Source: an uncultured Candidatus Saccharibacteria bacterium (GTDB lineage Bacteria > Patescibacteriota > Minisyncoccia > Phycocordibacterales > WO2-35-19). Taken from it: 64,000 bases of DNA. A model generated the notes under the pieces. The model was not told the DNA's origin. It saw nothing but the letters and a program-made list of their open reading frames with translations, and made no database searches. The position numbers and the translations under genes were made by a program. The stretch is from NCBI GenBank assembly GCA_964534305.1, contig CAZHPR010000002.1:27986-91985 (forward strand), given 5' to 3'. This document shows, piece after piece, positions 3,022-42,727 of this stretch (the stretch's first letter is position 1; every line of letters starts with the position of its first letter).

Positions 3022-3089
3022 TATTTGATTTCAATCTCGTGGAGGTATAGAGTTATGGGGTATTAGTATCTAGCCAAAATATATGGAAA
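3022..3089 (+). repeat. 68-bp direct repeat, copy 2 (includes the start codon of the SPFH gene)
   Basis: 67/68 identical to 1180..1247. Confidence 0.9.
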
Positions 3090-3829: not shown

Positions 3830-3836
3830 TTAAACA

Positions 3837-13900: not shown

Positions 13901-15670
13901 TTACCTTTGAGCGAATATGTTCCAAACTTTATCAGTTTCTATAAACAATTTTTCTATATTCTGGAATCTTTCGTTTGGAGAAGAAACTGGTTTAAGGGAA
14001 ATATTTTTTATTTTTGATGTTGGTACATAAACGAAGTCTGGAGAAAAGAGGAATATCGCCGGCACATCTTTCTTTATTTCTTCAATGACCTCTCTCCTTT
14101 TTTCTTTTATCAGTTGCTGGTCGCTGGTTGATCTGATCTCTTCGAGCAGTTTGTCTGTCTTTATGTTTGCGTATAGTGCTACATTAAGTCCAGGATCGTT
14201 TCTTTGTGAAGAATGCCAGAATGGATAGAGATCTCCCTCAGATCCGATAACCTCACCAAAAAGTAGGGCGTCATACTTTCTTGGTCTGATGACATTCTGA
14301 TTTAAGTCTGATATTTCAAAAACCTTTATATCTACTACTGCTCCGATTTTCTCCCATTCTTCCTTTAGGATCTCAGCAGACCTTTTTAGCTCGGGTACTT
14401 CTGAAGTTGATAGAGAGAAACGTAGAGAAATTGTATCAGATCCTTTTTTCTTTTCAAGCACACCTTCTTCATTTAAAGACCAGCCGTTATTTTCTAGCAA
14501 ACTCTTTGCTTCGGCAATCGATTCTTCTTGGGTTTTGGTACTTTCATATATGTCTAAAGGTGTTGGTCCATCTATTTTTTTACCGAAGCCCATAAGTATT
14601 TCTTGCACAATCCTCTCTCTGGGAGCTGATATGCTGAGCGCCTGACGAACTTCTTTGTTTAGAAATAGGGCAGATTGGTTTTGGTTTAAGAATAGTCCAA
14701 AAACTCTAGGCAGAGAAGATACTACTGTCTTTTTGCCATTGTCCTCAAGTCTCTTGGCTATATTTTGGGATATATTGCTTATACTGTCTATTTCCCCGTT
14801 CTCAAAAGCTTTTATAAGATCATTCTCGTTGTTAAAAAATTTGAACGTTATATTTTTTATAAGAGGTCGTCCTTGGGTGTATTTGTTGTAGCTTTCTAAC
14901 TTTATATTTACAGGGATACCACCGGAATTTCTTTTCAAATCCTTTATTTTGTATGGTCCAGAACCTACTGGTGTTATATTGAATTCACTAAAGGCAAATT
15001 CTTCGGAAGTTACATTTTGCCAGATATGTTTTGGCAAAATCCCTAGTGTTGCGACTTCACTAAACATGGAATAAGGTTTCCTTAGAATAAATCTTATGTT
15101 TTTTTCATCTATCTTTTCTATTGATACTCCTTCCCAACTAGCTCTCTTCGGACTTTTTATTACAGGATCCAAGACTTTTTCAATTGTAAATATTATATCG
15201 TCAGAAGTTACCGGCTTTCCGTCGTGGAAAAAGGCATCATTTCTTATACGAAAATCATAAACAATACCGTCGCTTGATATAGAAAATGATTCGGCCAGAT
15301 CTCCCTCAAACTCACCCGATTCACTCTGCTTTAGAAGTCCTGAATATATAATTTCTACCAAATCTTTGTCCGTGTCCCCGAGTGAGAGTACTGGGTTTAT
15401 AAACCGGGGACTTCCTACCATCCCTTCAGAAAAGGAGCCTCCAAACTTTGGCATTTCTGTTGTAAACACACCTTGTGTTTGCCAGAGCATCAATATACTT
15501 GTCACAGAAAATATGATTGCAAGGACAAAGAAAGCAACCCTTGTTGATGGCCCCATCGATCCTACCGATCTTTCAATCCAAGAAATTATCTTTATTTTTC
15601 TTGTCCTTATAAAAAGAACATCAAAAAAAGATATTATTTTTTCGTAAGTTTTCATTTTAATTACACACAC
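13901..15670 (-). CDS. ABC-type substrate-binding protein, family 5 (peptide/nickel-binding-like)
   Basis: An N-terminal TM/signal is followed by a large periplasmic domain with VRQALSISAPRERIVQEIL and other SBP_bac_5-like blocks. Confidence 0.55.
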   Translation of the reverse strand: MCVIKMKTYEKIISFFDVLFIRTRKIKIISWIERSVGSMGPSTRVAFFVLAIIFSVTSILMLWQTQGVFTTEMPKFGGSFSEGMVGSPRFINPVLSLGDTDKDLVEIIYSGLLKQSESGEFEGDLAESFSISSDGIVYDFRIRNDAFFHDGKPVTSDDIIFTIEKVLDPVIKSPKRASWEGVSIEKIDEKNIRFILRKPYSMFSEVATLGILPKHIWQNVTSEEFAFSEFNITPVGSGPYKIKDLKRNSGGIPVNIKLESYNKYTQGRPLIKNITFKFFNNENDLIKAFENGEIDSISNISQNIAKRLEDNGKKTVVSSLPRVFGLFLNQNQSALFLNKEVRQALSISAPRERIVQEILMGFGKKIDGPTPLDIYESTKTQEESIAEAKSLLENNGWSLNEEGVLEKKKGSDTISLRFSLSTSEVPELKRSAEILKEEWEKIGAVVDIKVFEISDLNQNVIRPRKYDALLFGEVIGSEGDLYPFWHSSQRNDPGLNVALYANIKTDKLLEEIRSTSDQQLIKEKRREVIEEIKKDVPAIFLFSPDFVYVPTSKIKNISLKPVSSPNERFQNIEKLFIETDKVWNIFAQR

Positions 15671-24097: not shown

Positions 24098-24360
24098 TTA
24101 TAAAAATAATACCCTAAAATTAGTAAATCTAGAAATCAAACAAATTGTAAAGGACAAAATATACTATAATCCGAGATCTATTTTTGTCCTTTATGGTCTT
24201 ATACAATATTTTAAACAAAAAAAAGACATATAAAGGACAAATACTAAAAAACCTTTAAAATAAAGCTTTTTTGACCTATAAAACCTTGACATTCTCATTA
24301 AAATATGAGAAGCTTTGGTCGTCAAGTTTAATAAAAATCATACAGAATAAAACAAATTCT

Positions 24361-27300
24361 ATGGAAAATAATATGAATATGAAAAAAATATTGAATTCCG
24401 CGCTTTCATTAGTGTTTATTTTTGTAATGATTTTTTCTAATTTTGCTGCTTTGCCTGTAAAGGTATCTGCTGAAGATGAAGCCTTTGTCCAAGAAAATAT
24501 GTTTTTTGGAGCACAGGAAGAAAGCAATACTGAAGTCGTTGTTAACAACAATAATACAGAAAGTGCCGGTGATTTGACTACTGATTTATCTGTTGCAGAT
24601 CAGACAAGTGGGGCAGCTGAACAGACAGAGACTATCTCCACAGAAGAAGTGAATAGTAATGTAAACTTTTCTACATCAGAAACAGAGCAAAGATCTTCAC
24701 AAGAAAATTTGTTTTCTACCTCTTCGTCTGGCGCTGATAATAATCAATCACTTCTTTCTATAGATAAGTTTGTTAAAAATGTTACAGATAGTACAGATTA
24801 TTCAAAACAAGTAGACGCAAACTTTGATGAAATAGTTAGATTTAAATTAGTTATCACTAATATTGGAACAGCCAATCTTAGTGATTTGTATGTTTCTGAT
24901 ACTTTGCCAGAGAAACTTTCTTATGTAGATGGTAGTCTATCTGTCCCAGAGCCTGTATATGGAGGCAATATATTTTCTACTCAAGGGCTCAATGTTCACG
25001 ACCTAAATCCTGGACAATCTATCACTATAACTTTTGATGCTAAAGTTTCTGGATCAAGCAGTTTTGGTTTTGGCGAGACCATACTTACCAATAATGCTAG
25101 TTCGGTTGAAATAGGTGGTACGCCTGCAAGTCCAGACACTGATTCTGCATCCGTTAGAGTTTTTAAGCAGCAAGAGACCACTCCGCCTCCAGTTAATGTT
25201 TGTAATGAAATAAAAGATAAAACTGGTTGGTATGGAAAATACTATGACTACAACTCTAGTCATCCAAATATGGAGGAGGTTACTTCTACCTGGAATACCT
25301 ACTATGGGGACCCACTAAGCAATGATGTTGCTTGGACAGCAGATTGGTATGACTCAAAATATTTTAAACTTGGTAGGGTAGATAGCAATCTTATTTTTAA
25401 TAACAACTTTTTCCCTCTAGATTCTGTTTCTGGTGCAGAGATTATAAACGGACACAACTACCACTTCGGTGTTCACTGGAAGGCTGTTGTGACAGCATCA
25501 AGTTCAGCTAATTATGGATTTAGGATTGATTCTGACGATGATGCTTGGGTTTATGTTGATGGTGATTTGATAAAAGATAACAGAGGGGTACACCCAGTGT
25601 TGTCCAAGACCGGTTCAGTTTATTTAACAAAGGGTGATCATATTGTAGATATTTTCTTTGCTGAGAGACACACAACACATTCAAATATGTACTTCAAGTT
25701 TAATGATACATCTCTAGTCATAAAACCTTTTGTTGATGGATGTACTTCAGTAAATACTCCACCGGTTATAACTCTAATCGGTAACAACCCACTATTTCTA
25801 ACAGTTGGTGATATATTCGTTGATCCAGGGGCAACATCTACCGATGCACAAGACGGAGATCTTACATCAAGCATTGTAAAAACTGGAACAGTTAACACCT
25901 CAGCTGTTAGCACAACAACACTAACTTATTCAGTTACTGACTCCGGTGGACTCTCTGCTTCTACTACAAGATTGGTAGTGGTTAAGCCAAAGGTTACTCC
26001 TCCTGGAAATGGTGGCGGCTCTACGAATACTCCACCGGTGATAACTCTAATTGGCAATAATCCTTTGAATATATTTATAGGTAGTACTTTTGTTGACCCG
26101 GGCGCAACAGCAACCGACGCACAAGACGGCAACCTTACTTCAAGCATAATAGTATCTGGTACTGTTGCTACCTCTACACTAGGTACATCAACTCTTACTT
26201 ACTCTGTCTACGATTCAGGCGGACTTGGCGCAACTACTACAAGGGAAGTTGTGGTACTTGCAACAACTACTCCGCCGGTAGTCAAACCACAGTGTTCTGA
26301 TGGTTTGGATAACGATGGAGATGGCAAGATTGATTCTCTAGACCCTGGCTGTCATAGCGATGGGAATGTAGAGAATGGTAGTTCTTTTGATCCAAATGAC
26401 GACAGTGAAGTCGATGTTCCTTCTAATCCTCCTAGCGATGGTGGTGGTAATGGCGGCGGAGGCGGTGGTGGTAGTTCTTTGAGTGGTAGAAGACGAGACG
26501 TAAGCAACCTCTTTGCAAGCGGGGGCGAGATTCTCGGTGCTTCAAGTTGTTCTTATCTTAGGGATTACCTGAGAATTGATTGGGCTAATGATAGAGTAGA
26601 AGTCCTAAAACTTCAGTCTTTCTTGAATATTTATGATGGAGCAAAATTAAACATGACAGGTGTCTTTGATCAAAACACACTTGTTGCTGTAAATAATTTC
26701 CAGAATAAATATGAGAGTGACATACTTACTCCTTGGGGGCACGATGCACCTACTGGATTTGTATACATTCTTACTAAGAAAAAGATAAATGAGATTTATT
26801 GCAACACTACTTATCCTCTAACTAGCGAACAAGCAGAGGAGATAAGAGAATTTAGAAGTTTCCTTGACGGTCTAAAGAGTTCTAACCCTGGCGCAACTTA
26901 TGATGCTGGTGGTATAGGAGGTGATCTAGAGGGAGCAATAAAGGGCGTTGTTGTATTAGATCAAAATGGTGAAGTTGTTGATACTGCTACCACAAGTGTA
27001 GTAGATCTTGTAAAGGACGATTCATTCTCCAGCTCAGTTCTCAGAAACGCTGCAGTTTCTATATTTGCAGTCCCAGATAGTACAACCGAGACACTAAGAT
27101 GTCTTATCGCTTTCCTCATAATACTTCTTGTTATGTATATAGTGTCTGGAATACTTGCAAACGGTACAAGAGAGAGGAGGATAGTATTTTTGATACTTTC
27201 TGTTATTGCGATAATTGTCTCTATAATTATAAACTTCTATTGTGTCGTCGCGCCGCTACTACTTGCACTTATAATCTCTGCGCTTCTCATAATCTTTGAT

Positions 27301-27525
27301 AATAAAAATGGCGATAGCGGAGACTCTAACCTTGAACAACCAAAGAATACCAATTCTTCAGAGGTAGAAGACAAAGCTCCAGAAAATCTACCTGCGCAGA
27401 CAGACTTACCAACGAAAGAAGAAGCTTCTAGTGTTATAGAAATGCCAGGAGAAATAGTTGTTGAGAATGACGAGGAAGAGGTGATAGAACCGTCTACTAT
27501 AGACTCAGAAAAAACAAACAACTAA
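24361..27525 (+). CDS. large secreted/membrane-anchored surface protein with DUF11-like, PA14, 2x DUF5011 (Ig-like) domains, a Gly-rich linker and C-terminal TM helices
   Basis: Signal peptide (MKKILNSALSLVFIFVMIF...AEDE). PA14-like block (DWYDSKYF...YGFRIDSDDDAWVYVDGDLI...TKGDHIVDIFFAERH). Two near-identical ~85-aa repeats (TPPVITLIGNNPL...VDPGAT.TDAQDG.LTSSI...TLTYSV.DSGGL). The start is taken at the internal ATG of MENNMNMKK; the ORF-track frame begins at 24271. Confidence 0.7.
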   Translation: MENNMNMKKILNSALSLVFIFVMIFSNFAALPVKVSAEDEAFVQENMFFGAQEESNTEVVVNNNNTESAGDLTTDLSVADQTSGAAEQTETISTEEVNSNVNFSTSETEQRSSQENLFSTSSSGADNNQSLLSIDKFVKNVTDSTDYSKQVDANFDEIVRFKLVITNIGTANLSDLYVSDTLPEKLSYVDGSLSVPEPVYGGNIFSTQGLNVHDLNPGQSITITFDAKVSGSSSFGFGETILTNNASSVEIGGTPASPDTDSASVRVFKQQETTPPPVNVCNEIKDKTGWYGKYYDYNSSHPNMEEVTSTWNTYYGDPLSNDVAWTADWYDSKYFKLGRVDSNLIFNNNFFPLDSVSGAEIINGHNYHFGVHWKAVVTASSSANYGFRIDSDDDAWVYVDGDLIKDNRGVHPVLSKTGSVYLTKGDHIVDIFFAERHTTHSNMYFKFNDTSLVIKPFVDGCTSVNTPPVITLIGNNPLFLTVGDIFVDPGATSTDAQDGDLTSSIVKTGTVNTSAVSTTTLTYSVTDSGGLSASTTRLVVVKPKVTPPGNGGGSTNTPPVITLIGNNPLNIFIGSTFVDPGATATDAQDGNLTSSIIVSGTVATSTLGTSTLTYSVYDSGGLGATTTREVVVLATTTPPVVKPQCSDGLDNDGDGKIDSLDPGCHSDGNVENGSSFDPNDDSEVDVPSNPPSDGGGNGGGGGGGSSLSGRRRDVSNLFASGGEILGASSCSYLRDYLRIDWANDRVEVLKLQSFLNIYDGAKLNMTGVFDQNTLVAVNNFQNKYESDILTPWGHDAPTGFVYILTKKKINEIYCNTTYPLTSEQAEEIREFRSFLDGLKSSNPGATYDAGGIGGDLEGAIKGVVVLDQNGEVVDTATTSVVDLVKDDSFSSSVLRNAAVSIFAVPDSTTETLRCLIAFLIILLVMYIVSGILANGTRERRIVFLILSVIAIIVSIIINFYCVVAPLLLALIISALLIIFDNKNGDSGDSNLEQPKNTNSSEVEDKAPENLPAQTDLPTKEEASSVIEMPGEIVVENDEEEVIEPSTIDSEKTNN

Positions 27526-28739
27526 ATATCTAGATTGCCGTCCGCCTTTAGTTCATACTCCTTGCTCTCCTTTCTGAGAGAGTCTATATAAGCTGATATC
27601 GCTATCATTGTTGCGTTGTCTGTAGTCAAACTTTTTTCTGGAATATAGACCTTAGGCCATAGAAAACTATTCTCAAGTTCCAAAATTTTCTCTCTTATTA
27701 GTTTGTTTGCTATAACTCCTCCTCCAACGATAATACTTTTTGGAGAGAATTCTTGGATTGCCTTTTTTGTTTTTGAAAGCAAAACCTCAACTACGGCATC
27801 TTCGAATTCTCTGGCAATTTCTTTCTTTTGATTTTCTGATAGTTTTGGTAGATCTTCTTTGGCCCCACCCCCTGCCCCCTCCCCTAAGGGGAGGGGGTTT
27901 GGGGGAGGGGATGTGTTATCTTTTCCTTTGCTTATTAAGTCCCGGATATAATACAAAACAGAAGTTTTAAGACCAGAAAATGAAAAGTTGTAATCTTTTG
28001 AGTGAAGCATCGGTCTAGGGAAATTCTTTTCTTGTTGGATACCTTCTTTTCTTGCTTCTTCTGCTAGTCTGCTTATCTCTGGCCCTCCTGGATAAGGGAG
28101 GTCAAGCATCCTGGCAACCTTATCAAAAGCTTCTCCTACTGCGTCGTCTAATGTCTCACCAATCTTTTTTTTATCGTGCCAGCTTTCCATGAGTACAAGC
28201 TCTGTGTGCCCACCGGAAATAAGTAGGGCAAGCGCAGGAAACTCAACACCTTGATTCATGATTCTTGATTCATGATTCTGCGCCAGTAGTACTGATGCAA
28301 TATGTCCTTCCATATGATTTGCACCGACAACTTTTACCCCCCAATTTTTACCAAGCTCTTCTGCGAACTTTATACCAGTCCAGAGAGCTGGCTCAAGCCC
28401 GGGCCCCACTGTTACCGCGATCATGTCAATGGGAAATTTTTTGCCTGGTTTGTTTTTTTCCCATAATTCATAATTCATAATTCCTAATTCATCTTCAAAA
28501 CCTGCTTCCTTTAGTGCTTCTTCCAAGACTATAGGTAAGTTTTTCTCATGCTCTCTTTTTGCAAGAGTGGGGAAGACACCGCCATACTCTTTGTGTATGT
28601 CTATCTGACTATTTACAGCACTTCCGAGTAGCTTGAAAGAGAGAGAATTTATGTCTCCTTCTGCTTCTACTATGCTTATTGCTGTTTCGTCACAACTAGT
28701 CTCTATCCCAAGTATTCTCATCACAACAATATACAACAA
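27522..28739 (-). CDS. tsaD: tRNA N6-adenosine threonylcarbamoyltransferase TsaD, with an internal low-complexity insertion
   Basis: MRILGIETSCDETAISIV, HMEGHI and LISGGHTEL motifs. Carries an inserted PPPNPLPLGEGAGGG segment encoded by a GC palindrome. Confidence 0.85.
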   Translation of the reverse strand: MLYIVVMRILGIETSCDETAISIVEAEGDINSLSFKLLGSAVNSQIDIHKEYGGVFPTLAKREHEKNLPIVLEEALKEAGFEDELGIMNYELWEKNKPGKKFPIDMIAVTVGPGLEPALWTGIKFAEELGKNWGVKVVGANHMEGHIASVLLAQNHESRIMNQGVEFPALALLISGGHTELVLMESWHDKKKIGETLDDAVGEAFDKVARMLDLPYPGGPEISRLAEEARKEGIQQEKNFPRPMLHSKDYNFSFSGLKTSVLYYIRDLISKGKDNTSPPPNPLPLGEGAGGGAKEDLPKLSENQKKEIAREFEDAVVEVLLSKTKKAIQEFSPKSIIVGGGVIANKLIREKILELENSFLWPKVYIPEKSLTTDNATMIAISAYIDSLRKESKEYELKADGNLDI

Positions 28740-34302: not shown

Positions 34303-34362
34303 TTCTGTTAGCAATCCACGCTTTTGTAGATAAGCAAAATTTGTTTTTGCTATAATTAAGAC

Positions 34363-35649
34363 ATGTCAACAAAGTTTCAGATAATCCTAACTGGTGTATT
34401 TGCTCTTTTTATTGTTGTGGGAGTTATTGTATTTTCTATGTACAGAGGCTCTCAGGGTCAGGTTAGTAATGTAATTGTTTGGGGTACTATAGAGCAAACC
34501 GATTTCTCTCAGATACTTATGGCGACTGGTCTCGCTCAGAGCAAAGAATACTCAGTCCAGTATGTAAAGAAAGCAGAAGAAACTTTTGATAATGATCTAG
34601 TAGAGGCGATCGCTGCTGGTGAGGGCCCAGACGTCTTCTTTTTGCCTAGTGACAAGATAATAAAAAATATGAACAAGACGTTTATAATACCTTACAACGT
34701 CTTTACCGAGAGGAATTTTAAAGACTCTTTTATAGAGGGTGCCGAAATATTTATGTTGCCGGAGGGTGTTGTTGCGATGCCGTTTGTGGTTGATCCGCTG
34801 GTGATGTATTGGAACAGAGCTATATTCAATGATTCAAAGATAACCGTACCTCCAAAATATTGGGATCAATTCTTCAATCTGGCTTCAGTTATTTCTATAA
34901 AGGATGGTAGTCTCAATATTTTGAGAAGTGCTGTCGCGCTTGGAGAGTTTTCAAACATATCACATGCAAAGGAGATAATCTCTACCCTTGCAATGCAAGC
35001 CGGTACCCCTATAACTTATTGGAGCGGTGGTAAACCAATGAGCAGCTTCTCTCTTAGACTAGACAAACCGACAATACCAGCAGAGGCCGCGGTAAACTTT
35101 TATACAGAATTTTCAAATCCAGCAAAAACATCATACTCCTGGAACAGATCAATAGTCTCTTCTACAAATTATTTTCTGGGAGGAGATCTCGCTATGTATT
35201 TTGGTTTTGCAAGCGAGATTGCTGGTATACAATCAAAAAACCCAAATCTAAACTTTGATGTTGCTCCTATGCCGCTTTCTAGAGAGGGTGGCAATGACTC
35301 TATCTTTGGTAGGTTTTATGGTTTGGCGATAACAAAAACTTCCAAAAATCCTAACGCCGCCTTTGGTGTAGTTTCAATACTTACTTCTACTCAAGGCTCA
35401 AAAGCTTTTGCAGAGATACTAAGGCTTCCTCCAGTGAGACGCGACCTCCTAGCCGAGAGACCTACCGGCGCGTATCTTAGTGTGTTTTATGATAGCGCAA
35501 TAAGGGCTAGAGGATGGCTTGATCCAGATAGGGTAGAGACCAATATTATATTTAGAAATATGATAGAGTCAGTTACAAGCGGAAGATCTAGGGTAAGTGA
35601 GGCGGTTGCAAGGGCAAACAGAGAAATATCAAATCTTTTACAAAAATGA
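34363..35649 (+). CDS. TM-anchored extracellular solute-binding-like protein (SBP_bac_1-like); function uncertain
   Basis: N-terminal TM helix plus a ~400-aa periplasmic-type domain. Its stop overlaps the start of the first small-protein gene (ATGA). Confidence 0.4.
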   Translation: MSTKFQIILTGVFALFIVVGVIVFSMYRGSQGQVSNVIVWGTIEQTDFSQILMATGLAQSKEYSVQYVKKAEETFDNDLVEAIAAGEGPDVFFLPSDKIIKNMNKTFIIPYNVFTERNFKDSFIEGAEIFMLPEGVVAMPFVVDPLVMYWNRAIFNDSKITVPPKYWDQFFNLASVISIKDGSLNILRSAVALGEFSNISHAKEIISTLAMQAGTPITYWSGGKPMSSFSLRLDKPTIPAEAAVNFYTEFSNPAKTSYSWNRSIVSSTNYFLGGDLAMYFGFASEIAGIQSKNPNLNFDVAPMPLSREGGNDSIFGRFYGLAITKTSKNPNAAFGVVSILTSTQGSKAFAEILRLPPVRRDLLAERPTGAYLSVFYDSAIRARGWLDPDRVETNIIFRNMIESVTSGRSRVSEAVARANREISNLLQK

Positions 35650-36050
35650 TATCGGGTTCTAAAAAAAATATATTTAATACATTTGTAACCATACTTTTGG
35701 TGTTTGTCCCTGTCTTGTCATTTGCGGCACCGCTCATCCCTTCTCCTGTTGTCCCTAATTGTCCAAATCCAGAAGGCTGTGGTTTTGTTGAATTTATAGA
35801 GCTTATAAACAATGTTGTTAGTTTGCTAATCGCATTGTCGTTCCCTATCGCTGCGGGAGTTATCGCTTGGGCAGGTTTTAATATGATTATGGATGGTGGT
35901 AATGGGGCAAAGAGGAAGGAGTCTATAGAGATGATAAAGAAAGTTGTTATCGGTTTTGTTATAATGCTCTCAGCTTGGATTGTAGTCTCTACCTTGCTAA
36001 ACGCACTAATATCAAGTCAATTTAAAGACGCGGTACAAATAGTAAAATAA
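35646..36050 (+). CDS. small two-TM membrane protein, paralog 1 (VirB2/TrbC-pilin-like architecture)
   Basis: Signal peptide (VPVLSFAAP). A Cys pair (CPNPEGC). SLLIALSFPIAAGVIAWAGFNMIM, then a basic loop (GGNGAKRKES), then a second TM helix. Confidence 0.6.
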   Translation: MISGSKKNIFNTFVTILLVFVPVLSFAAPLIPSPVVPNCPNPEGCGFVEFIELINNVVSLLIALSFPIAAGVIAWAGFNMIMDGGNGAKRKESIEMIKKVVIGFVIMLSAWIVVSTLLNALISSQFKDAVQIVK

Positions 36051-36054
36051 TAAA

Positions 36055-36477
36055 ATGTTTAATAAAACAAAATTTTCAAAACTTTTAATCTTCACTCTTT
36101 CTCTCTTTATTGCACTTTCTCCTGTTTTTGTTTTTGCAGTCGATGATACCGGTAATAACCCTAAACCAGATGATGTTGGTAAAAATCCAACTCCTGTCTC
36201 TTATCAAATAAAAATAACAAACCCATTCAAATCAAACAGCGTAGAGGGTTTGTTAAAAGCGATAGTCAATGAAATATTGATACCAATAGGAAGCGTTGTT
36301 GCCGCTATTATGGTTATATATGCAGGCTTTTTGTTTGTAACTGCAAGAGGGGACGCTGGCCAGATAAAGACCGCAAAACAAGCCCTGTTGTATGCAGTTA
36401 TAGGAGCAGCGATACTTCTCGGTGCTTGGGTTATTATAAACGCGATAAGTGCGACAATAGACAAACTAAGAGTATAA
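36055..36477 (+). CDS. small two-TM membrane protein, paralog 2 (VirB2/TrbC-pilin-like)
   Basis: Signal peptide (SPVFVFAVDD). ILIPIGSVVAAIMVIYAGFLFVTARGD, a loop, then LLYAVIGAAILLGAWVII. This resembles the P.G...R hairpin of TrbC/VirB2. Confidence 0.6.
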   Translation: MFNKTKFSKLLIFTLSLFIALSPVFVFAVDDTGNNPKPDDVGKNPTPVSYQIKITNPFKSNSVEGLLKAIVNEILIPIGSVVAAIMVIYAGFLFVTARGDAGQIKTAKQALLYAVIGAAILLGAWVIINAISATIDKLRV

Positions 36478-36481
36478 AATT

Positions 36482-36757
36482 ATGGATCTTGCTGGTTTAA
36501 TAAAAATGTTTACAGATATGGGGCTTAGGGTGATACCCTTTATTGGCTCTATCGCCTTTCTTGCATTTGTCTGGGGGATTGCAAGATTTATAAAGTCTAG
36601 TGGTAGTGAGGCAGAGATGAAAAAGAGCAAGGAGTTCCTTATCTGGGGTGTCATTGGGATCTTTGTACTTGCGACAATATGGGGCATTATCTCTTTTATA
36701 AGAGGTGAATTCGGGTTTAGTGGTACCTTCGGTATCCCACAGATAAGAGTAAAATAA
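36482..36757 (+). CDS. small two-TM membrane protein, paralog 3
   Basis: VIPFIGSIAFLAFVWGIARFIKS, the loop SGSEAEMKKSKEF, then LIWGVIGIFVLATIWGIISFIRGE. Confidence 0.6.
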   Translation: MDLAGLIKMFTDMGLRVIPFIGSIAFLAFVWGIARFIKSSGSEAEMKKSKEFLIWGVIGIFVLATIWGIISFIRGEFGFSGTFGIPQIRVK

Positions 36758-36765
36758 AAAATATT

Positions 36766-37041
36766 ATGGGATTAATGAAATTATTAGAAGCGGCACAGGG
36801 GATAGTCACAGGAATACTTATTCCACTTGCCTTTGCCCTTGCTCTCCTGTACTTCTTTTGGGGGGTTGCAAAGTATATAAACTCTGGGGCTGGTGGCGAG
36901 AAGGCGGCAGAGGAGGGTAAGAGAGTTATGATTTGGGGTATAGTAGCCCTCTTTATTGCAACATCAATATGGGGTATAGTTAACTTTATAAAATCAGAAC
37001 TTGGGTTGCCGGGTATACAAAAAGTGAATATCCAAAATTAA
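36766..37041 (+). CDS. small two-TM membrane protein, paralog 4
   Basis: ILIPLAFALALLYFFWGVAKYINS, the loop GAGGEKAAEEGKRVM, then IWGIVALFIATSIWGIVNFIKSE. Confidence 0.6.
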   Translation: MGLMKLLEAAQGIVTGILIPLAFALALLYFFWGVAKYINSGAGGEKAAEEGKRVMIWGIVALFIATSIWGIVNFIKSELGLPGIQKVNIQN

Positions 37042-37060
37042 TTTAATAAATTAAAATAAT

Positions 37061-37486
37061 ATGAAAGAAAAAATAAAATATATAGTAGGTCTTGCACTTT
37101 TATCTCCAGTTTTTGCTTCTGCTCAATTAACACAGACTAGAACTTTGCTGCAAAGTGCAATGAATATAGTTACTCAGATTCTAATACCCCTAGTATTTAC
37201 CCTTGCTCTTTTGTTTTTCTTTTGGGGAATTGCAAAGTATATAAGGTCAGAGGGCACTGGTAAGGAGGAGGGTAAGAAAATAATGATCTGGGGAGTTGTT
37301 GCACTATTCGTAATGTCTACAATTTGGGGGTTAGTTTCTTTTATAAGGGGAGAACTTTTGGGTAATACTAGCGCTCCTATATCTCAACCTGTTCCTACAA
37401 TTGGTGCCGGGGCTGGTGGGGGAGCTTCTATTCCTGGTCAAGATCCTGGTAGTGGTTATATATCAGGGCTGCCTGCAGGATTCTAA
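37061..37486 (+). CDS. small two-TM membrane protein, paralog 5 (signal peptide plus a Gly-rich C-terminal tail)
   Basis: Signal peptide SPVFASAQ. ILIPLVFTLALLFFFWGIAKYIRSEGTGKEEGKKIMIWGVVALFVMSTIWGLVSFIRGE, then a GAGAGGGASIPGQDPGSG tail. Confidence 0.6.
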   Translation: MKEKIKYIVGLALLSPVFASAQLTQTRTLLQSAMNIVTQILIPLVFTLALLFFFWGIAKYIRSEGTGKEEGKKIMIWGVVALFVMSTIWGLVSFIRGELLGNTSAPISQPVPTIGAGAGGGASIPGQDPGSGYISGLPAGF

Positions 37487-37509
37487 AATTATCTGTGGAT
37501 AAGGATTTG

Positions 37510-37538
37510 TTGAAAATAAACTAAAATATTGGTATAAT
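37510..37538 (+). promoter_or_regulatory. sigma70-like internal promoter TTGAAA-17-TATAAT inside the small-protein array
   Basis: It lies in the only ~100-bp gap of the array, upstream of paralog 6. Confidence 0.5.
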
Positions 37539-37585
37539 TAACAGGTAAAAAATTGGTCGTTTAATTATTAATTTTTGCAAAAATT

Positions 37586-37933
37586 ATGAAAAAAATAGCT
37601 ATAATCGGCGTTGCTTCATTGCTTCCAGTGTTTGCTTCAGCTCAGGATCTGAGCAATATCCAGACACTTGTACAATCTATAGGTAATATTATAAACATAG
37701 CAATACCTATAGTCTTTGCTTTGGCAATGCTATTCTTCTTCTGGGGTCTTGCAAAGTACATCCTAGGCTCAGAGCACGACAAGGATGCGGCGAAGAAGAC
37801 TATGATCTGGGGAGTTGTTGCACTATTCGTGATGGCTGCTGTATGGGGCCTTGTAAGCTTCATAAGTAGGGCTGTTGGTGTAAACTCTCAGGGTCCTGGA
37901 TTTACTCCAAGCAGCTTGGTTCCAAGAGGCTAG
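37586..37933 (+). CDS. small two-TM membrane protein, paralog 6
   Basis: Signal peptide LLPVFASAQ. AIPIVFALAMLFFFWGLAKYILGSEHDKDAAKKTMIWGVVALFVMAAVWGLVSFISRA. Confidence 0.6.
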   Translation: MKKIAIIGVASLLPVFASAQDLSNIQTLVQSIGNIINIAIPIVFALAMLFFFWGLAKYILGSEHDKDAAKKTMIWGVVALFVMAAVWGLVSFISRAVGVNSQGPGFTPSSLVPRG

Positions 37934-38013
37934 AGATATTCCAAAATCTATATAGAAAAAGAAAATCCCCATCCTTTTTAGGTGGGGGATTTTCTTTGTG
38001 ATAAAATGCTTTT

Positions 38014-38271
38014 ATGGATGTAAAGATGCTACTTGGTAAAATAGCAGAGCTTATAATAAATCCTATTATAATTTTGGGATTTGTTATTGCGACTATTTAC
38101 TTCTTTTACGGTATTTTTGAGCTTATTTACAAAGCAGACGAGGGGAAGGATGAACACAAAAAGAATTTGATATACGGTATTATCGGTCTCTTTGTAATGT
38201 TTTCTGTTTATGGAATTTTGAATATTGTCTTAGATACTTTTGGTATTACTAACAAAGGTCTCATACCTTAA
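38014..38271 (+). CDS. small two-TM membrane protein, paralog 7 (divergent, no signal peptide)
   Basis: IINPIIILGFVIATIYFFYGIFELIYKADEGKDEHKKNLIYGIIGLFVMFSVYGILNIV follows the same hairpin plan. Confidence 0.5.
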   Translation: MDVKMLLGKIAELIINPIIILGFVIATIYFFYGIFELIYKADEGKDEHKKNLIYGIIGLFVMFSVYGILNIVLDTFGITNKGLIP

Positions 38272-38303
38272 TTTTTTATGAAAAAAGGGGATCTTGCGAT
38301 CCC

Positions 38304-39764
38304 CTAGAAAAATATCACCAGAACCTTGACTGGTTCTTTCTCTCTGGATTTTAGTCTAAACTTGTAGACCTCTTTGGGTTTTTTGGAGTCCTCTTCTCGG
38401 GGTAGTTTTTCCTCAACCGTGTCGTTCCAGAGTACGACGTACTTTTTACCACCTCCATCAAGGGAGTGATTTCCTCCATTGCGAGGTATATTAACCTCTC
38501 TTCCAAACTCATTAACTGGCGCCTCAACGTGTAATACAACTGGGATCCTTGTTGGGCCTAGAGAGGTCATTCCTGCAAGGACTGGTTCCCAGCAGTACCG
38601 CGACGCTTCCCAAGGGTGCTCTTTGTAAGCGCTTGGGTTGGCAAGGTACCTCTCGAGGATGACCTTGCCCAGGCGGTAGTTGTCCTCTTTGGACTTCGCC
38701 GGGTCAATACCCGTCTCCTTGATCAAGTCGGCGTGGATACGCGTGTTGATCTGGAGTGCCCCCGTGTCGTCGGGGTCTTTCTTACCCTTGACGGGGATCT
38801 TCTTCTCCTCGTCTTGCCACTGCTTGCCCCCCGGTTCCCCAGGCGACTCGCAGTTGCCGTACTCGGTGAGCTGGTCGTCGAGACTAGCAGCAATTGGCCG
38901 GTAGGTCGGGGAGTTAGCAGTGCCAGCTCGTGGCTCTGTAAACCCCGGCAAGGGGCGCCAGTAGATGTTGAAGGCGAGAATTACTATTGTTGCAACCATC
39001 ACAAACCTCCTTAGAGATTTTGCAAATGGTTTTATCTCGCTTTTCTCGTTGCGATAGCTGGTGAGTATGCAGACAAACAGTAGTCCCAGGTTGAAAACCC
39101 AAAAAAACTGCTTGTCGCTGTAGTACCAATTCCAGTACCTAGGCTGTACCGAGGTTCCAAAGTAGCCGATAAGGTTTAGAGAAATCAGACCAAGGCAAGA
39201 AAGAACTATCATCGCAGTATCGGGTGCGTACTCCTTGCCGGGTATTTTTTCCAAACTAACCTTGCCCTTTAGTCTGCGAATTAGGAACCAAAGCAAGACG
39301 GATCCGACGATGATTGCGAGTATCCACTTTACCACATCAATGTGAATCAGTGTGGTAGCAATTATTGCAACAACCATCGGTACGAAGAAAATTGCTGTAT
39401 TTGATCTTGGTGGTTTTCCATCACGCTCTGTCATTCTTGGAAAGATAGACAGTAGTAAAATGGTGAACACCAGGGCTTCAGCCCAGACAAGTCCAGTTAT
39501 GGACATCCGGGAGAAGAAGAAAACAAGAATTGGTAGGGGAAGGACCAGTAATACAAAAACCCACCTAGCTGGTTTTATTGATCCAGCTTTTCTCCCCGTG
39601 CTTTTGGCTAGTTTCCCAAGCCAGTTTTTCATTGATTCAGGTGAAATCTCACGAATAGTCCAAAATGAGAAATGGCCTGTCAGTACCAGTGCAAGCACCA
39701 GTGCTAAAATCGAAAGGCTGTATCCAAGGTAGCCAACCGTTTTCCCAAAGAGTGCTTCGAGCAT
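38304..39764 (-). CDS. polytopic membrane protein (~10 TM) with a C-terminal soluble domain that is GC-rich and weakly SLT/lytic-transglycosylase-like
   Basis: An AAAAAGGAGAG RBS precedes the ATG. The N-terminal 320 aa are hydrophobic helices. The C-terminal ~160 aa are encoded by ~58% GC DNA and carry ES...P...GALQI...NYRLG..ILE, with wider spacing than canonical SLT. Confidence 0.5.
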   Translation of the reverse strand: MLEALFGKTVGYLGYSLSILALVLALVLTGHFSFWTIREISPESMKNWLGKLAKSTGRKAGSIKPARWVFVLLVLPLPILVFFFSRMSITGLVWAEALVFTILLLSIFPRMTERDGKPPRSNTAIFFVPMVVAIIATTLIHIDVVKWILAIIVGSVLLWFLIRRLKGKVSLEKIPGKEYAPDTAMIVLSCLGLISLNLIGYFGTSVQPRYWNWYYSDKQFFWVFNLGLLFVCILTSYRNEKSEIKPFAKSLRRFVMVATIVILAFNIYWRPLPGFTEPRAGTANSPTYRPIAASLDDQLTEYGNCESPGEPGGKQWQDEEKKIPVKGKKDPDDTGALQINTRIHADLIKETGIDPAKSKEDNYRLGKVILERYLANPSAYKEHPWEASRYCWEPVLAGMTSLGPTRIPVVLHVEAPVNEFGREVNIPRNGGNHSLDGGGKKYVVLWNDTVEEKLPREEDSKKPKEVYKFRLKSREKEPVKVLVIFF

Positions 39765-39887: not shown

Positions 39888-40946
39888 TTATGGTTTTGGA
39901 GGATCCTGCTGGTTGGCGATGAGTGAAGTATTTGCTCCACCCTCGACAAGGGTTGTGAGTTTTCCACCCACCATCCTTTGTCGTAGAAGGTCTTTGTAAT
40001 TCTCACCCGCCGCATTTTTTTCTGCTGTAATTCTTGAGGACTCACCTTCTCCAAGGAGGATTAATTCCCTCTTTTTCCCCTCAGCTATAGTGATTGTTGC
40101 GTCCCTCTCGGCTTGAGCCCTGGTTCTCTCGACGTCGGCGTCCCTCTCGGCTTCTGCGCGCCTGATATTTGCAGCTTCGTACTCCTTGTTGGGTGTGATT
40201 CCAGATATCGAGATATGCAGGATATCAACACCAACTTGTTCCTCGAGCAACCTTCTGAAGTCGCTCACATTTCCTTGCTTGCCGATAATGTAATCGGTGA
40301 AATCCTTGGATATGCTCTTGCGTGCTTCTCTCACCATGTTTTCATAGGTGAAATCACCACAGAAATCCTTGAGCTCTGCTTGGAGTCTGGGCACGAGCGC
40401 TCCACCGAACCAGTCGCCTCGGTTTTGCATCAAGGCAATCATCGGCCGAACGATCCTCACCCTGAAGGTGAGTTCAAAACCGATCGGAATTAATGGTTGT
40501 TTGGCGTCTGGATCTCTGACTTCACCGCGCATCTCGATTCCTTTGAATGGTAGTGCATACTGCGATTCAAATGGTGTGATGTAGATGATCTCTGGTGCGT
40601 GAGCGATGACGCTATGTGAAGCGTCGCCGTCATCTATTTGGTATTTTGACCAGGAGAACTTATAGCGGTACATTCCCTGGAATGGCGGTACCCCGACAAA
40701 ATGGTAGCCAAGTTGGTCTTGACAAAGTTCGTCAAAAAAACCAATTGGTTGCCGGTCCCCGGTATCCTTGACGAAAACAAAGTCTTCGTTCACGCCCCAA
40801 CCACGGACGTTGTGAATGATCCGGCGAAGTTTTTCACCTCTTACGATTAGGATAAAGCGCTCTTGTGGGCAGGTTGTAAACAGTGAATACTTTGGTAGTA
40901 TCCTTGCTTCTTCCTGCTGGGGAATAGTTTTTGTTGCTGAAGCCAT
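39888..40946 (-). CDS. SPFH/band-7 domain protein (flotillin/stomatin-like), GC-rich
   Basis: AAGGAGG RBS. An SPFH core is followed by an AEAERDADVERTRAQAERDA coiled-coil region. GC is ~50%, against ~37% for the neighbours. Confidence 0.65.
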   Translation of the reverse strand: MASATKTIPQQEEARILPKYSLFTTCPQERFILIVRGEKLRRIIHNVRGWGVNEDFVFVKDTGDRQPIGFFDELCQDQLGYHFVGVPPFQGMYRYKFSWSKYQIDDGDASHSVIAHAPEIIYITPFESQYALPFKGIEMRGEVRDPDAKQPLIPIGFELTFRVRIVRPMIALMQNRGDWFGGALVPRLQAELKDFCGDFTYENMVREARKSISKDFTDYIIGKQGNVSDFRRLLEEQVGVDILHISISGITPNKEYEAANIRRAEAERDADVERTRAQAERDATITIAEGKKRELILLGEGESSRITAEKNAAGENYKDLLRQRMVGGKLTTLVEGGANTSLIANQQDPPKP

Positions 40947-41044
40947 GGGCTCCTCCTTACCTCTCTTATTTTTTCATCGATCTAGTCTACTTACAATTAT
41001 ATCACATTTGCAATATAAACGCAAATAGTATAGAATTGAGGCAG

Positions 41045-41380
41045 GTTTCCTTTCCGGATGGTTACTCCTCACTATAAAAATGGTGGGGGGAGGAAAGTCC
41101 GAACACAGCCCTATTTTTTAGGGAGCAGGTAATGGGTAACACCCATCGGGGTAATCCTAGAGATGCGAACAGAAACGACCCGGTTAAGTCCGGCTGAAAC
41201 GGCTAAATTCTTATCTCTGTGCAAGGCCGTACTCAAGTAGCAATACTTGTTTGTGCCGCTAAAATCTTTAGACTTGTTTTAGATTTTATCTTGAGCCTGT
41301 CGAAAGATGTGAGGTTGTCGGCAACGACAATCCCAGATAAATACCATTTAAACAGAATTCGGCTTATGAGAGAGGAGACC
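41045..41380 (+). ncRNA. rnpB: RNase P RNA (bacterial type A-like)
   Basis: P4 strands GGAGGAAAGTCCGAACAC and ACAGAATTCGGCTTAT. P1 pairing GGTTTCC/GGAGACC. An upstream TTGCAA-17-TAGAAT promoter and a downstream terminator at 41388-41420. Confidence 0.85.
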
Positions 41381-41387
41381 TAAAAGT

Positions 41388-41420
41388 GCAAAAGCCGCCC
41401 TAACGGGCGGCTTTTGCTAT
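41388..41420 (+). terminator. intrinsic terminator after rnpB (aaagccgccctaacgggcggcttttgc)
   Basis: GC stem plus a T-tract. Confidence 0.7.
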
Positions 41421-41485
41421 TATTAAAATAATTTTCAAACTTCTATTTTTTTGTATTTAAAGAAGGGGACGGCGTACCGTCCCCT

Positions 41486-42031
41486 TCAGGGTTGGAGCTC
41501 CCGGGTAAGTAAGGGTAAAACGTAGTCCCTGATCTTATCCCACGGATAAAGAATTTTTTTTGGGTCTCTTGCGTCGTCAGTGTGGTCACCGATTTTCTCG
41601 ATGGCGACTCCGAATTCTTTGACTACACATCGAGTCACGTAACGGTGTTGCATTATTGCCTCTTGCAGTTTAGCCTGAGAGCTTGGGCTCAATGGTTTGT
41701 TCAGTCTGAACAGAAGAAAGTTTTTTCCCGATAAAGGGGTAAACCTGTCCGATTCTGATTTCCCAAGTTCCTTGCTAGAGTTTTCGATCGACAGATCGTA
41801 TTTGACACCCTTTACTCCAGGGAGGTCATCTCCCTGAACTATCTTTATGGTGTCTACGATGGGCGCCTCTACGTTCTGTGTGTTTTGGTTTTTGAACAAC
41901 ACAGAAGCAACAACTACTATCAAAATTCCACAAACAAAAGCGATGGAAGCTCTTATGATTCTGGGTTTTTTGTACCATTTGACCCTCCGGCGTCTGCGAG
42001 AGACGGGAGGGTCATGGGATGGGGGACTCAT
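41486..42031 (-). CDS. hypothetical bitopic membrane protein (basic N-terminus, one TM, ~130-aa extracytoplasmic domain)
   Basis: The start is taken at the ATG of MSPPSH, which overlaps (ATGA) the stop of an upstream 32-aa ORF. The ORF-track frame extends to 42091. Confidence 0.45.
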   Translation of the reverse strand: MSPPSHDPPVSRRRRRVKWYKKPRIIRASIAFVCGILIVVVASVLFKNQNTQNVEAPIVDTIKIVQGDDLPGVKGVKYDLSIENSSKELGKSESDRFTPLSGKNFLLFRLNKPLSPSSQAKLQEAIMQHRYVTRCVVKEFGVAIEKIGDHTDDARDPKKILYPWDKIRDYVLPLLTRELQP

Positions 42032-42126
42032 TTTACCCCCAGGAACATCAGTGCGAACGTTGCTCCTGCGAAGAGCGGCAAGACAATCCAAATTGCCTCA
42101 CCCTTGATTACTGACAGTGTCCTCAT
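42028..42126 (-). CDS. 32-aa hydrophobic peptide, translationally coupled to the downstream gene
   Basis: AAGGAGGT RBS 6 nt upstream of the ATG at 42126. MRTLSVIKGEAIWIVLPLFAGATFALMFLGVK. Its TGA overlaps the next ATG. Confidence 0.4.
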   Translation of the reverse strand: MRTLSVIKGEAIWIVLPLFAGATFALMFLGVK

Positions 42127-42206
42127 AGAGGAACCTCCTTTCTTGTCCTTAACTATTATATACTATCCAAAACAATTTGTCCACTATCTATTTTGTAAAA
42201 TATGTG

Positions 42207-42287
42207 TGCCCAGGGTGGGACTTGAACCCACACTTCTTACGAAACTCGATCTTAAGTCGAGCGCGTCTACCATTCCGCCACCCGGGC
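42207..42287 (-). tRNA. tRNA-Leu (UAA), type II
   Basis: Acceptor GCCCGGG/CCTGGGC, anticodon loop CTTAAGA, long variable arm, T-arm GTGGGTTCAAGTCCCAC. Confidence 0.8.
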
Positions 42288-42291
42288 AATG

Positions 42292-42363
42292 AGGCCTAGG
42301 GCGGAATTGAACCGCCGTATATTCCTTTTGCAGAGGAATGCCTTACCACTTGGCTACTAGGCC
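42292..42363 (-). tRNA. tRNA-Cys (GCA)
   Basis: Acceptor GGCCTAG/CTAGGCC, anticodon loop CTGCAAA, T-arm GGCGGTTCAATTCCGCC. Confidence 0.8.
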
Positions 42364-42431
42364 TGATAATACTTAAATTAGCTTACCATAAAAATAGTTT
42401 TATGGTATATTCTTAGATACAAAATAATATA

Positions 42432-42504
42432 CCGCCCATAGCTCAGTTGGTAGAGCAGCTCCCTCTTAAGGAGATGGTCGTAGGTTCGACTCCTACTGGG
42501 CGGA
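42432..42504 (+). tRNA. tRNA-Lys (CUU)
   Basis: D-arm GCTCAGTTGGTAGAGC, anticodon loop CTCTTAA, T-arm GTAGGTTCGACTCCTAC. The acceptor begins with C (CCGCCCA/TGGGCGG), which is unusual. Confidence 0.7.
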
Positions 42505-42508
42505 CACT

Positions 42509-42591
42509 GCTGGGGTGGCGGAATTGGTATACGCGCTAGTCTTAGGAACTAGTTCCCTTGTGGATTAGGAGTTCAAGTCTCCTCCCCAGCA
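42509..42591 (+). tRNA. tRNA-Leu (UAG), type II
   Basis: Acceptor GCTGGGG/CCCCAGC, anticodon loop CTTAGGA, long variable arm, T-arm GGAGTTCAAGTCTCC. Confidence 0.8.
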
Positions 42592-42727
42592 CAAAAATGA
42601 GTCCAGCGAATTTTTGTGCTGGGGAGCGCATCTTTTTGCTTTGCAAAAAGGAGAAAGACTTGAAAGACGGAGGCTCTATGAGCCGAGTCGGGGTCGAGCA
42701 AAAATTCAACAGAATTTTATGCGTGAC

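Follow-up and report, generated by a model that had tools for sequence, protein, structure and literature searches.

A candidate VirB1-like role for a membrane-tethered, lysozyme-like protein encoded tail-to-tail with a VirB2-like pilin array in Patescibacteria

Two gene units converge in the stretch considered here, a 64-kb window of contig CAZHPR010000002.1 from an uncultured Candidatus Saccharibacteria bacterium (64,000 nucleotides; 'the window' below means the whole of it). Unit 1 (34363-38271, + strand) is headed by the gene for a solute-binding protein (SBP) and continues with an array of seven small VirB2-like pilin genes; unit 2 (40946-38304, - strand) consists of an SPFH-like gene followed by the gene for a 486-aa membrane protein, named X here (38304-39764, - strand). 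The reading favoured here, with belief and doubt about evenly balanced, is that X is a membrane-tethered, outward-facing enzyme that cleaves the glycan of its own cell's peptidoglycan, and so serves the adjacent VirB2-like structure in the manner of VirB1. A preliminary description of this DNA had already named the three envelope gene types (SBP, small-protein array, polytopic membrane protein), and the open reading frame (ORF) listing and Pfam place all of them where it had put them.

The only patescibacterium open to genetics so far cannot do without its VirB2-like array, most genomes that carry such arrays lack a recognisable VirB1, and X is a concrete candidate for the hydrolase. The X family comprises at least 383 sequence clusters missed by current Pfam and NCBIfam models, and the two-domain form of X always lies tail-to-tail with the array in this lineage. 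Should the linkage prove to be synteny only, what is left would be a lysozyme-like family that is new and well defined, and the earlier idea of a compact apparatus would still stand corrected. The features of the two units are these:

34327-34356, + strand: weak sigma-70-like promoter candidate just upstream of the SBP gene (TAGATA-18-TATAAT, TG-extended; consensus scan)
34363-35649, + strand: SBP, 428 aa, first gene of its operon, membrane-anchored, of the MalE-like oligosaccharide-binder class (Pfam)
35646-36050, + strand: pilin p1, 134 aa, Sec-type leader and two hydrophobic helices; PF18895 39.9 bits
36055-36477, + strand: p2, 140 aa, leader and two helices; PF18895 33.1 bits, PF04956 29.7 bits
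36482-36757, + strand: p3, 91 aa, no leader; PF18895 33.4 bits
36766-37041, + strand: p4, 91 aa, no leader; PF18895 33.0 bits
37061-37486, + strand: p5, 141 aa, leader, Gly/Pro-rich C-terminal tail; PF18895 32.5 bits
37510-37538, + strand: internal promoter candidate in the ~100-bp spacer before p6 (TTGAAA-17-TATAAT, 11/12, TG-extended; consensus scan)
37586-37933, + strand: p6, 115 aa, leader; top PF18895 score, 48.2 bits (E 1.2e-12)
37966-37988, + strand: terminator-like hairpin 3' of p6 (consensus scan)
38014-38271, + strand: p7, 85 aa, no leader; PF18895 29.6 bits
38286-38305, - strand: intrinsic terminator of X, a GC-rich hairpin and T-run between the convergent units (sequence read and scan)
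38307-38543, - strand: beta-sandwich module of X, residues ~408-486, type T1 (AlphaFold2 model, pLDDT 91, strands only)
38553-38891, - strand: lysozyme-like domain of X, residues ~292-404 (AlphaFold2 model, profiles, hhalign, Foldseek)
38949-39764, - strand: variable polytopic anchor of X, residues 1-272, eight predicted transmembrane (TM) helices (hydropathy and loop charge)
39888-40946, - strand: divergent SPFH/Band-7 protein, 352 aa, co-directional with X (Band_7 41 bits, cutoff 23.6)

Domains and membrane anchor of X

The C-terminus of X had been described as one soluble domain reminiscent of lytic transglycosylases; AlphaFold2 models, built with 42 and 66 homologues, divide it into two, a domain 1 modelled with high confidence (pLDDT 95, pTM 0.87; pLDDT 91 when both domains are modelled together) and the beta-sandwich. 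The motifs that suggested the transglycosylase comparison are present in domain 1 as E306-S307-P308, G335-A-L-Q-I339 and N362-Y-R-L-G366, and are not there by chance, since they are conserved across 102 family members: no member departs from E306, G335 or Q338, and conservation is at least 90% at S307, I339, N362, W385 and W392. The modelled fold comprises a helix ending at Glu306, a small beta-sheet with Asp333 and G335-ALQIN, and three further helices; as in lysozymes, the Glu terminates helix 1 and strands carry Asp333 and QIN.

The lysozyme signal emerged only with profiles of 42-66 sequences: a single-sequence search of X against PDB sequences returned only TM noise, and a seven-sequence profile nothing. 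With 66 sequences, C-type lysozymes and EtgA, the lytic transglycosylase of a type III secretion system, filled the first 60 places among PDB matches (best E 1.3e-3); in the EtgA alignment the ES motifs of the active site fall opposite each other, and so do the D-x-G-x-x-QIN hairpins. Hhalign of the profile with hen lysozyme gave 73% probability and E 3e-5, over only 54 columns. Foldseek returned nine PDB matches for domain 1, eight of them lysozyme-like (Slt, MltF, lambda lysozyme, RpfB/C) and all with E > 3; in BFVD one match reached E 9e-4, and about 30 of the top 50 bore names of SLT/transglycosylase, LT_GEWL, lysozyme or endolysin proteins. Below the Pfam threshold, 9 of the 102 family members match PF18896 SLT_3 and 3 match PF01464 SLT. 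Between the invariant Glu, the profile matches to C-type lysozymes and EtgA, and named Foldseek matches that are nearly all lysozyme-like, the earlier assignment is supported, and domain 1 is very probably lysozyme-like. The wide gap from ES to GALQI, which had cast doubt on that assignment, is real (29 residues in X, 23 in short relatives, 19 in hen lysozyme); it comes from a clade-specific 10-residue PGEPGGKQ insertion.

Hen lysozyme shares with X the Glu-Ser pair, the Asp on strand 2 and the G-x-L-Q-I-N motif (X DDTGALQINTRIH, hen TDYGILQINSRWW), and C-type (GH22) lysozymes, the top sequence-profile matches of X, also have the conserved Trp after the following helix. X differs from them in lacking the four disulfides, in being bacterial and membrane-bound, in scoring below the Pfam Lys threshold, and in that the Asp is not conserved throughout its family.

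X lies outside any curated family at threshold. It has no Pfam match at E <= 0.1 and none in NCBIfam; the gathering thresholds of SLT, SLT_3 and Lys (PF01464, PF18896 and PF00062) are not reached, the highest scores of relatives being 17-18 bits where 21.3 and 27 are required. A word-indexed search found 7 relatives, an exhaustive C-terminal profile search 383 clusters at E <= 1e-3. Among the matches listed, the better-scoring members are mostly built of a variable TM region, domain 1 and domain 2; about 40 short proteins (90-220 aa) consist of domain 1 alone, and three such single-domain relatives (P0040, P0085 and P0119; X-family proteins are numbered in this way) have no pilin nearby on their 1.8-3.4-kb contigs. 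One pattern scan of GTDB genomes (alignment A2) found no relative, and a literature search on PF18896 found no paper.

The N-terminal part of X had been credited with about ten TM helices, a number that hydropathy peak-picking reduces to eight. Loops rich in Lys/Arg (8, 4, 6 and 6 of these residues) alternate with loops holding 0-2, and because of this alternation the positive-inside rule predicts that the C-terminal domains face outside the membrane; about 20 residues of linker separate the last TM helix from domain 1. This region aligns poorly within the family: only the last helices can be aligned, in long forms only, and positional orthologues have 2, 2, 2, 2, 3, 4, 5, 5, 5, 5, 6, 6 and 8 TM helices. 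A Trp-rich motif, approximately W-x-W-x-x-W-D-x-Q-x-x-F-W-x-x-N, recurs in P0044, P0067, P0072, P0132 and the window X (aa 205-225); it occupies the outward-facing loop that precedes the last TM helices, is missing from the two-helix forms, and may mark a part of the anchor conserved for its function.

On the preliminary proposal, SBP, pilins and X, the last as a VirB6-like body fused to a VirB1-like domain, could make up a compact, self-contained secretion apparatus spanning the envelope. VirB6 proteins lengthened by hydrophilic domains at the C-terminus are known ('extended VirB6'; PMC12857230), the three envelope gene types always occur together, and one of the 102 family members has a weak TraG_N match (E 0.008). 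However, Pfam finds no TrbL/VirB6 (PF04610) match for X, the TM region is unalignable save for those last helices and shrinks to two of them in several positional orthologues, no ATPase or energising component was found among the ORFs scanned in the locus and the window, and X stands in a separate, convergent operon. A VirB6-like channel body for X was rejected on the missing TrbL match and the range of two to eight helices; the compact apparatus, largely refuted already by the two-helix orthologues, is scarcely credible.

The pilin array, the SBP and known systems

All seven small ORFs of unit 1 (35646-38271, + strand) score above the PF18895 T4SS_pilin gathering cutoff (29.6-48.2 bits, cutoff 26.6), and p2 passes that of PF04956 TrbC/VirB2 as well (29.7 against 27.9 bits). 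A helix-loop-helix core, two hydrophobic helices with a short charged loop, aligns across the paralogs, and 4 of the 7 have cleavable-looking Sec-type leaders. The genes p1-p5 are tightly packed; p6 is set apart by spacers of about 100 bp (37486-38014), as are its orthologues in four relatives' loci (L001, L002, L003 and L009), and p6 may be the major subunit, separately and highly expressed. Every paralog is matched 1:1 by a positional orthologue in relatives (55-80% identity in the case of p7), and identity between different paralogs is mostly 27-54%; since positional orthologues are closer than paralogs are to one another, the array is, judging by its sequences, old and made of differentiated members rather than freely varying copies. 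Copy number does change occasionally: there are eight paralogs in L009, L010/L025 and L023, and six in L028.

The SBP passes the SBP_bac_1 gathering threshold (61.7 bits, cutoff 26; SBP_bac_8 59.9 bits). The preliminary description of it as TM-anchored and translationally coupled to the first paralog is borne out by a single N-terminal hydrophobic segment (aa ~1-30) and by a stop codon sharing 4 bp with the p1 start (aaaATGAtat, ATG at 35646, TGA at 35647-35649), an overlap also present in 6 of the 8 other loci in which the junction is visible (L001, L003, L009-L012). Its nearest solved relatives are MBP1 (4r9f), the chitin-oligosaccharide-binding NagB2 (7eho) and a maltodextrin-binding protein (1elj), at E 5e-6 to 2e-4. 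No cognate transporter was found for it, there being no BPD_transp or ABC_tran match among the window ORFs scanned; what follows the SBP gene is pilins.

An SBP coupled to p1 with no canonical permease nearby invites the thought that the small two-helix proteins are membrane parts of an unconventional SBP-dependent uptake system, with X supplying the substrate. The sub-threshold TctB match of p7 (E 5e-4) would suit such a system, and the retention of seven paralogs 1:1 across relatives suggests a fixed hetero-oligomer; yet every one of the seven passes the T4SS_pilin threshold and p2 that of TrbC/VirB2, the Sec leaders of four of them look cleavable as in VirB2, and homologous arrays lie inside the type IV secretion system (T4SS) cluster of Southlakia epibionticum. 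We regard this uptake system as very improbable. Elsewhere in the window, 13901-15670 encodes a 589-aa SBP_bac_5 protein (peptide/nickel type), whose gene likewise has none for a permease or ATPase in its vicinity; it seems typical of this genome to have orphan SBPs.

Arrays of this kind are widespread in Patescibacteria, a survey having counted 441 PF18895 arrays of 2-11 genes in 383 assemblies; most VirB2-bearing genomes in it were without detectable VirB1, for which other glycosidases may substitute (PMC12102498). In S. epibionticum a six-pilin array lies within a T4SS cluster and is essential, and a lysozyme-like/Cys-protease hydrolase and a VirB6-like protein are further products of that cluster (PMC10633639). 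The array in the window resembles these in being a tandem of sequence-divergent two-helix pilins that pass PF18895 and TrbC, in the same phylum-level group, and resembles the S. epibionticum cluster in having a lysozyme-like hydrolase nearby. It differs in that virB4 and virB6 lie farther off than the window reaches, in being headed by an SBP, and in keeping its paralogs 1:1 across relatives instead of letting them vary freely. The words 'sbp' and 'solute-binding' occur 0 times in the survey (PMC12102498). The type of array is thus known; the literature searched describes neither the SBP, X and SPFH genes conserved alongside it nor the X family itself.

Specialised peptidoglycan hydrolases accompany several secretion systems: VirB1 in T4SS, EtgA, IagB and IpgF in type III systems, PrgK and TraG in Gram-positive T4SS. 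X has in common with this group a lysozyme-like domain with a Glu-Ser motif ending helix 1, a beta-hairpin N-x-D-G-x-x-D-x-G-x-x-Q-I-N, EtgA aligning over exactly that region, and a place beside VirB2-type filament genes; with PrgK and TraG it shares the membrane tether. Unlike the group, it goes undetected by the SLT, SLT_3 and Lys models at threshold, carries its PGEPGGKQ insertion between the Glu and the hairpin, and has a polytopic anchor of variable length, a swappable beta-sandwich and an SPFH partner gene.

The favoured reading would then work as follows. The variable anchor of two to eight helices would hold X in the membrane; outside, past the linker of about 20 residues, a lysozyme-like domain, whose active site (Glu306/Asp333) is of the type seen in C-type lysozymes and EtgA, would cut glycan strands of the producer's own peptidoglycan locally; the local opening in the wall would let the pilin-based structure through; the beta-sandwich would be an interchangeable targeting or binding module; a cytoplasmic SPFH-like scaffold would organise or restrain X in the membrane; and the pilin-assembly machine (VirB4 and partners) would be encoded elsewhere. 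The enzymatic activity, the cooperation with the pilins and the parts given to the SBP and the SPFH protein are what we infer; the target is most likely the producer's own wall, because the tether of X is short.

Gene order and mosaic structure around X

Gene order was compared in contigs encoding X relatives, six GTDB genomes and thirteen metagenome contigs, scanned with hidden Markov models made from the window genes (loci W, the window's own, and L001-L006, L009-L015, L019/L020 and L021-L033). Sequences related to the SBP and to X carry the label Candidatus Zambryskibacteria or Patescibacteria group, and the chromosome is Zambryskibacteria-like (Parcubacteria group, Patescibacteria). Groundwater from the Hainich wells is the source of L006-L008 and L021-L025. 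The order is constant: an SPFH-like gene, then X, convergent with 6-8 pilin genes, then the SBP gene and usually gyrA; it is kept in all of about 20 distinct Zambryskibacteria-like loci in which the contig extends far enough, with SBP identities of 60-77% among loci compared pairwise. The preliminary description had asked for co-conservation of SBP, array and X, and the three do occur together in every related locus examined, though functional linkage is not thereby proven. It had also set beforehand two outcomes that would count against it, an unrelated fold for the C-terminal domain and an unconserved neighbourhood; the domain is very probably lysozyme-like and the neighbourhood is conserved.

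The SPFH-like gene lies 123 bp upstream of X. It precedes X in 11 of 11 loci by iterative search, and in 11 further metagenome loci; several of the orthologues fall below the Pfam threshold and are connected by the iterative search. No hydrophobic or TM segment was found in the protein. A second, canonical SPFH/Band-7 gene (E 2.7e-41) is present at 3083-4733, followed directly by a PGA_cap capsule-synthesis-type gene, and the divergent SPFH protein beside X is therefore an additional, specialised copy. HflK/C with FtsH offers a parallel, in that an SPFH-family gene stands immediately upstream of, and co-directional with, that of a membrane-embedded hydrolase; here, however, the SPFH protein is very divergent and without a TM segment, its partner is a predicted glycan hydrolase and not a protease, and the pairing of the two proteins is putative.

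X and its SPFH neighbour vary far more than what surrounds them. Protein identity to the window copy is 24-51% for X, 60-77% for the SBP, 34-80% for the pilins and 79-90% for GyrA. Within X the modules vary independently: the lysozyme domain is 90% identical to that of P0002 and 79% to that of P0003, and the beta-sandwiches are unrelated in sequence (alignment scores 52 and 29); the window's beta-sandwich type is shared with P0021 and P0032 (58% and 52% identity, score 208), whose lysozyme domains are only 38% and 26% identical to the window's. Clustering gives at least five sequence types of beta-sandwich, distributed in contradiction to both SBP and lysozyme-domain similarity: the window has T1, but the two relatives whose SBPs are most similar to its own have T3 and T2.

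The same pattern is visible in the DNA. The window segment 38584-41428 (5' two-thirds of X, the SPFH gene and intergenic sequence) has 84-87% nucleotide identity to L019/L020, and the stretch from gyrA through p5 has 71-74%; 38304-38583, encoding the beta-sandwich, has no nucleotide match to these loci at all, the breakpoint falling just past a conserved CWEP motif, near residue 394. Against L001, the flank from gyrA to p7 is 73.6% identical, and within SPFH-X the lysozyme-domain DNA alone aligns, leaving the TM region, beta-sandwich and SPFH gene unaligned. We read this as repeated exchange of SPFH-X parts among related lineages. Phage endolysins and Gram-positive autolysins likewise exchange catalytic domain and C-terminal module independently; unlike them, X is an integral membrane protein and has no detectable sequence relative in phage or plasmid records.

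Composition sets the operon apart as well. The lysozyme-domain DNA (38550-38909) has a GC content of 0.59 and a third-position GC (GC3) of 0.75, in a genome of GC 0.40; GC3 is 0.54 for X overall and 0.50 for the SPFH gene, against about 0.31-0.38 (~0.34) for housekeeping genes of the window and 0.25-0.41 for the pilin genes. Most orthologues show a smaller offset in the same sense, with GC3 of 0.43-0.63 in the orthologous lysozyme-domain segments. Exchange with higher-GC relatives and selection are both possibilities. The C-terminal domain had been called foreign: its composition is indeed anomalous, but the anomaly is not confined to the C-terminus, the whole SPFH-X operon being compositionally and evolutionarily out of line. 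A 132-aa antisense ORF at 38616-39014 is spurious, a product of the GC-rich lysozyme-domain DNA.

Recent insertion of a mobile element (prophage, plasmid or defence island) was considered for the GC-rich 38-42-kb stretch, which lies beside a tRNA cluster. Tblastn found no relatives in 50,697 phage and 72,556 plasmid records, PADLOC none, and PHROGs no X relative and a marginal match only for the SPFH protein; the insertion was rejected because of these negatives and because the stretch occupies the same position in all relatives.

Module swapping and anomalous composition mark SPFH-X as a fast-evolving envelope component, in a group whose host interactions are otherwise hard to study. A second perspective turns X outward, as a tethered muramidase facing a host, with the exchangeable beta-sandwich recognising the wall of the host bacterium, X opening it where the cells touch, the SBP capturing the wall oligosaccharides set free and the pilins forming a conduit or adhesin. 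Module swapping with accelerated, incongruent evolution is typical of proteins at the interface between organisms; the nearest solved relatives of the SBP bind beta-linked oligosaccharides, chitin oligomers among them; and a part in compromising host envelopes has been proposed for lytic transglycosylases of Patescibacteria (PMC11665869). But with some 20 residues between last TM helix and catalytic domain, another cell's wall would be geometrically hard to reach, the ORFs scanned in the window yielded neither permease nor ATPase for the SBP, and all that this account adds to the mosaic structure is inference, in a lineage without an experimental system. This host-facing role seems improbable. 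So, rather more boldly put, does the notion that SPFH-X is a recombination-driven specificity cassette of Zambryskibacteria-like episymbionts, in which the beta-sandwich would set the wall recognised, and X, filament and SBP would together breach it and capture sugars; we think that distinctly improbable, though, if true, it would be a previously undescribed module for host access or nutrient harvest, and would also supply the 'missing VirB1' of Patescibacteria arrays. Foldseek with the two-domain model found only weak beta-sandwich matches (GGCX lumenal domain, cupins, GOLD; best E 2e-3), and no match to any known wall-binding domain.

Several facts weigh against a VirB1-like partnership of X with the array. 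The adjacency is embedded in a block of about 20 kb that is syntenic for unrelated housekeeping genes, the MBL-fold gene, gyrA, SBP, pilins, X, SPFH, rbfA, infB and clpB being collinear in relatives; because of this longer block the linkage of X with the array is suggestive only, and inherited gene order is its possible sole cause. None of the loci examined shows X and the array relocated as a pair to other surroundings. X and the pilins are not transcribed together: their units run in opposite directions and end at separate terminators. Scanning ORFs of the 64-kb window gave 0 matches to T4SS ATPase and channel families (VirB4, VirD4, VirB6/TrbL), and X, where a VirB1 would be expected inside a cluster with virB4 and core genes, lies outside any operon with these; only VirB2-like genes adjoin it. 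Each of the matches to lysozymes and lytic transglycosylases is borderline and individually weak, none being strongly significant, and Asp333 is replaced by Ala in other subfamilies. Lastly, a housekeeping role on the cell's own wall does not obviously fit a hypervariable, lineage-exchanged beta-sandwich and SPFH partner.

The collinear block and the opposed transcription units speak for a third perspective, in which X is a general wall-remodelling enzyme, an autolysin of growth or division, and its place beside the array is an inheritance without functional meaning. Peptidoglycan synthesis genes (Mur ligases, D-Ala-D-Ala dipeptidase) are found in the same 64-kb window, and the short linker suggests action on the cell's own wall here too. 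That the adjacency persists in every locus seen, down to identities of about 80% for GyrA, about 60% for the SBP and 24-40% for X, speaks against mere inheritance, as does its persistence where the flank on the SBP side differs (no gyrA in L003; a gap of about 0.8 kb before gyrA in L009); nor are housekeeping autolysins usually hypervariable mosaics with swapped C-terminal modules. A general autolysin is, on this evidence, somewhat unlikely.

Other genes of the window

The remaining genes of the window are housekeeping ones: CTP synthase, RNase J, GroEL, LeuRS, GyrA, IF2, ClpB, Mur ligases, ParB, RelA/SpoT, topoisomerase I and ten tRNAs. Every ORF of at least 379 aa is assigned by Pfam to other functions than those of a T4SS, except the one we take to be infB, which was recognised by eye and has no Pfam assignment.

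Upstream of the SPFH gene, 40947-41485 holds about 440 bp without a convincing ORF, 84% identical to L020, in which an Rfam search found nothing; it ends in a perfect hairpin with a 13-bp stem (41388-41417), resembling a bidirectional terminator after the gene for a 201-aa TM protein. That protein (41486-42091) has an Arg-rich N-terminus, one TM helix and no family match; its gene has the SPFH-X operon on one side and four clustered tRNA genes (42206-42592) on the other, and L001, the closest locus in synteny, is the only one with a homologue (32% identity).

Farther off, 24271-28739 includes the gene for a 1084-aa surface protein with PA14, bacterial Ig-like and DUF11 domains, whose 3' end overlaps the end of the convergent tsaD (27522-28739) by 4 bp. 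A PIF1-like helicase with a C-terminal HTH_40 domain (6874-8520) and the DNA-processing competence gene DprA (63318-63944, cut at the window edge) are consistent with the enrichment of natural-competence genes reported for Patescibacteria.

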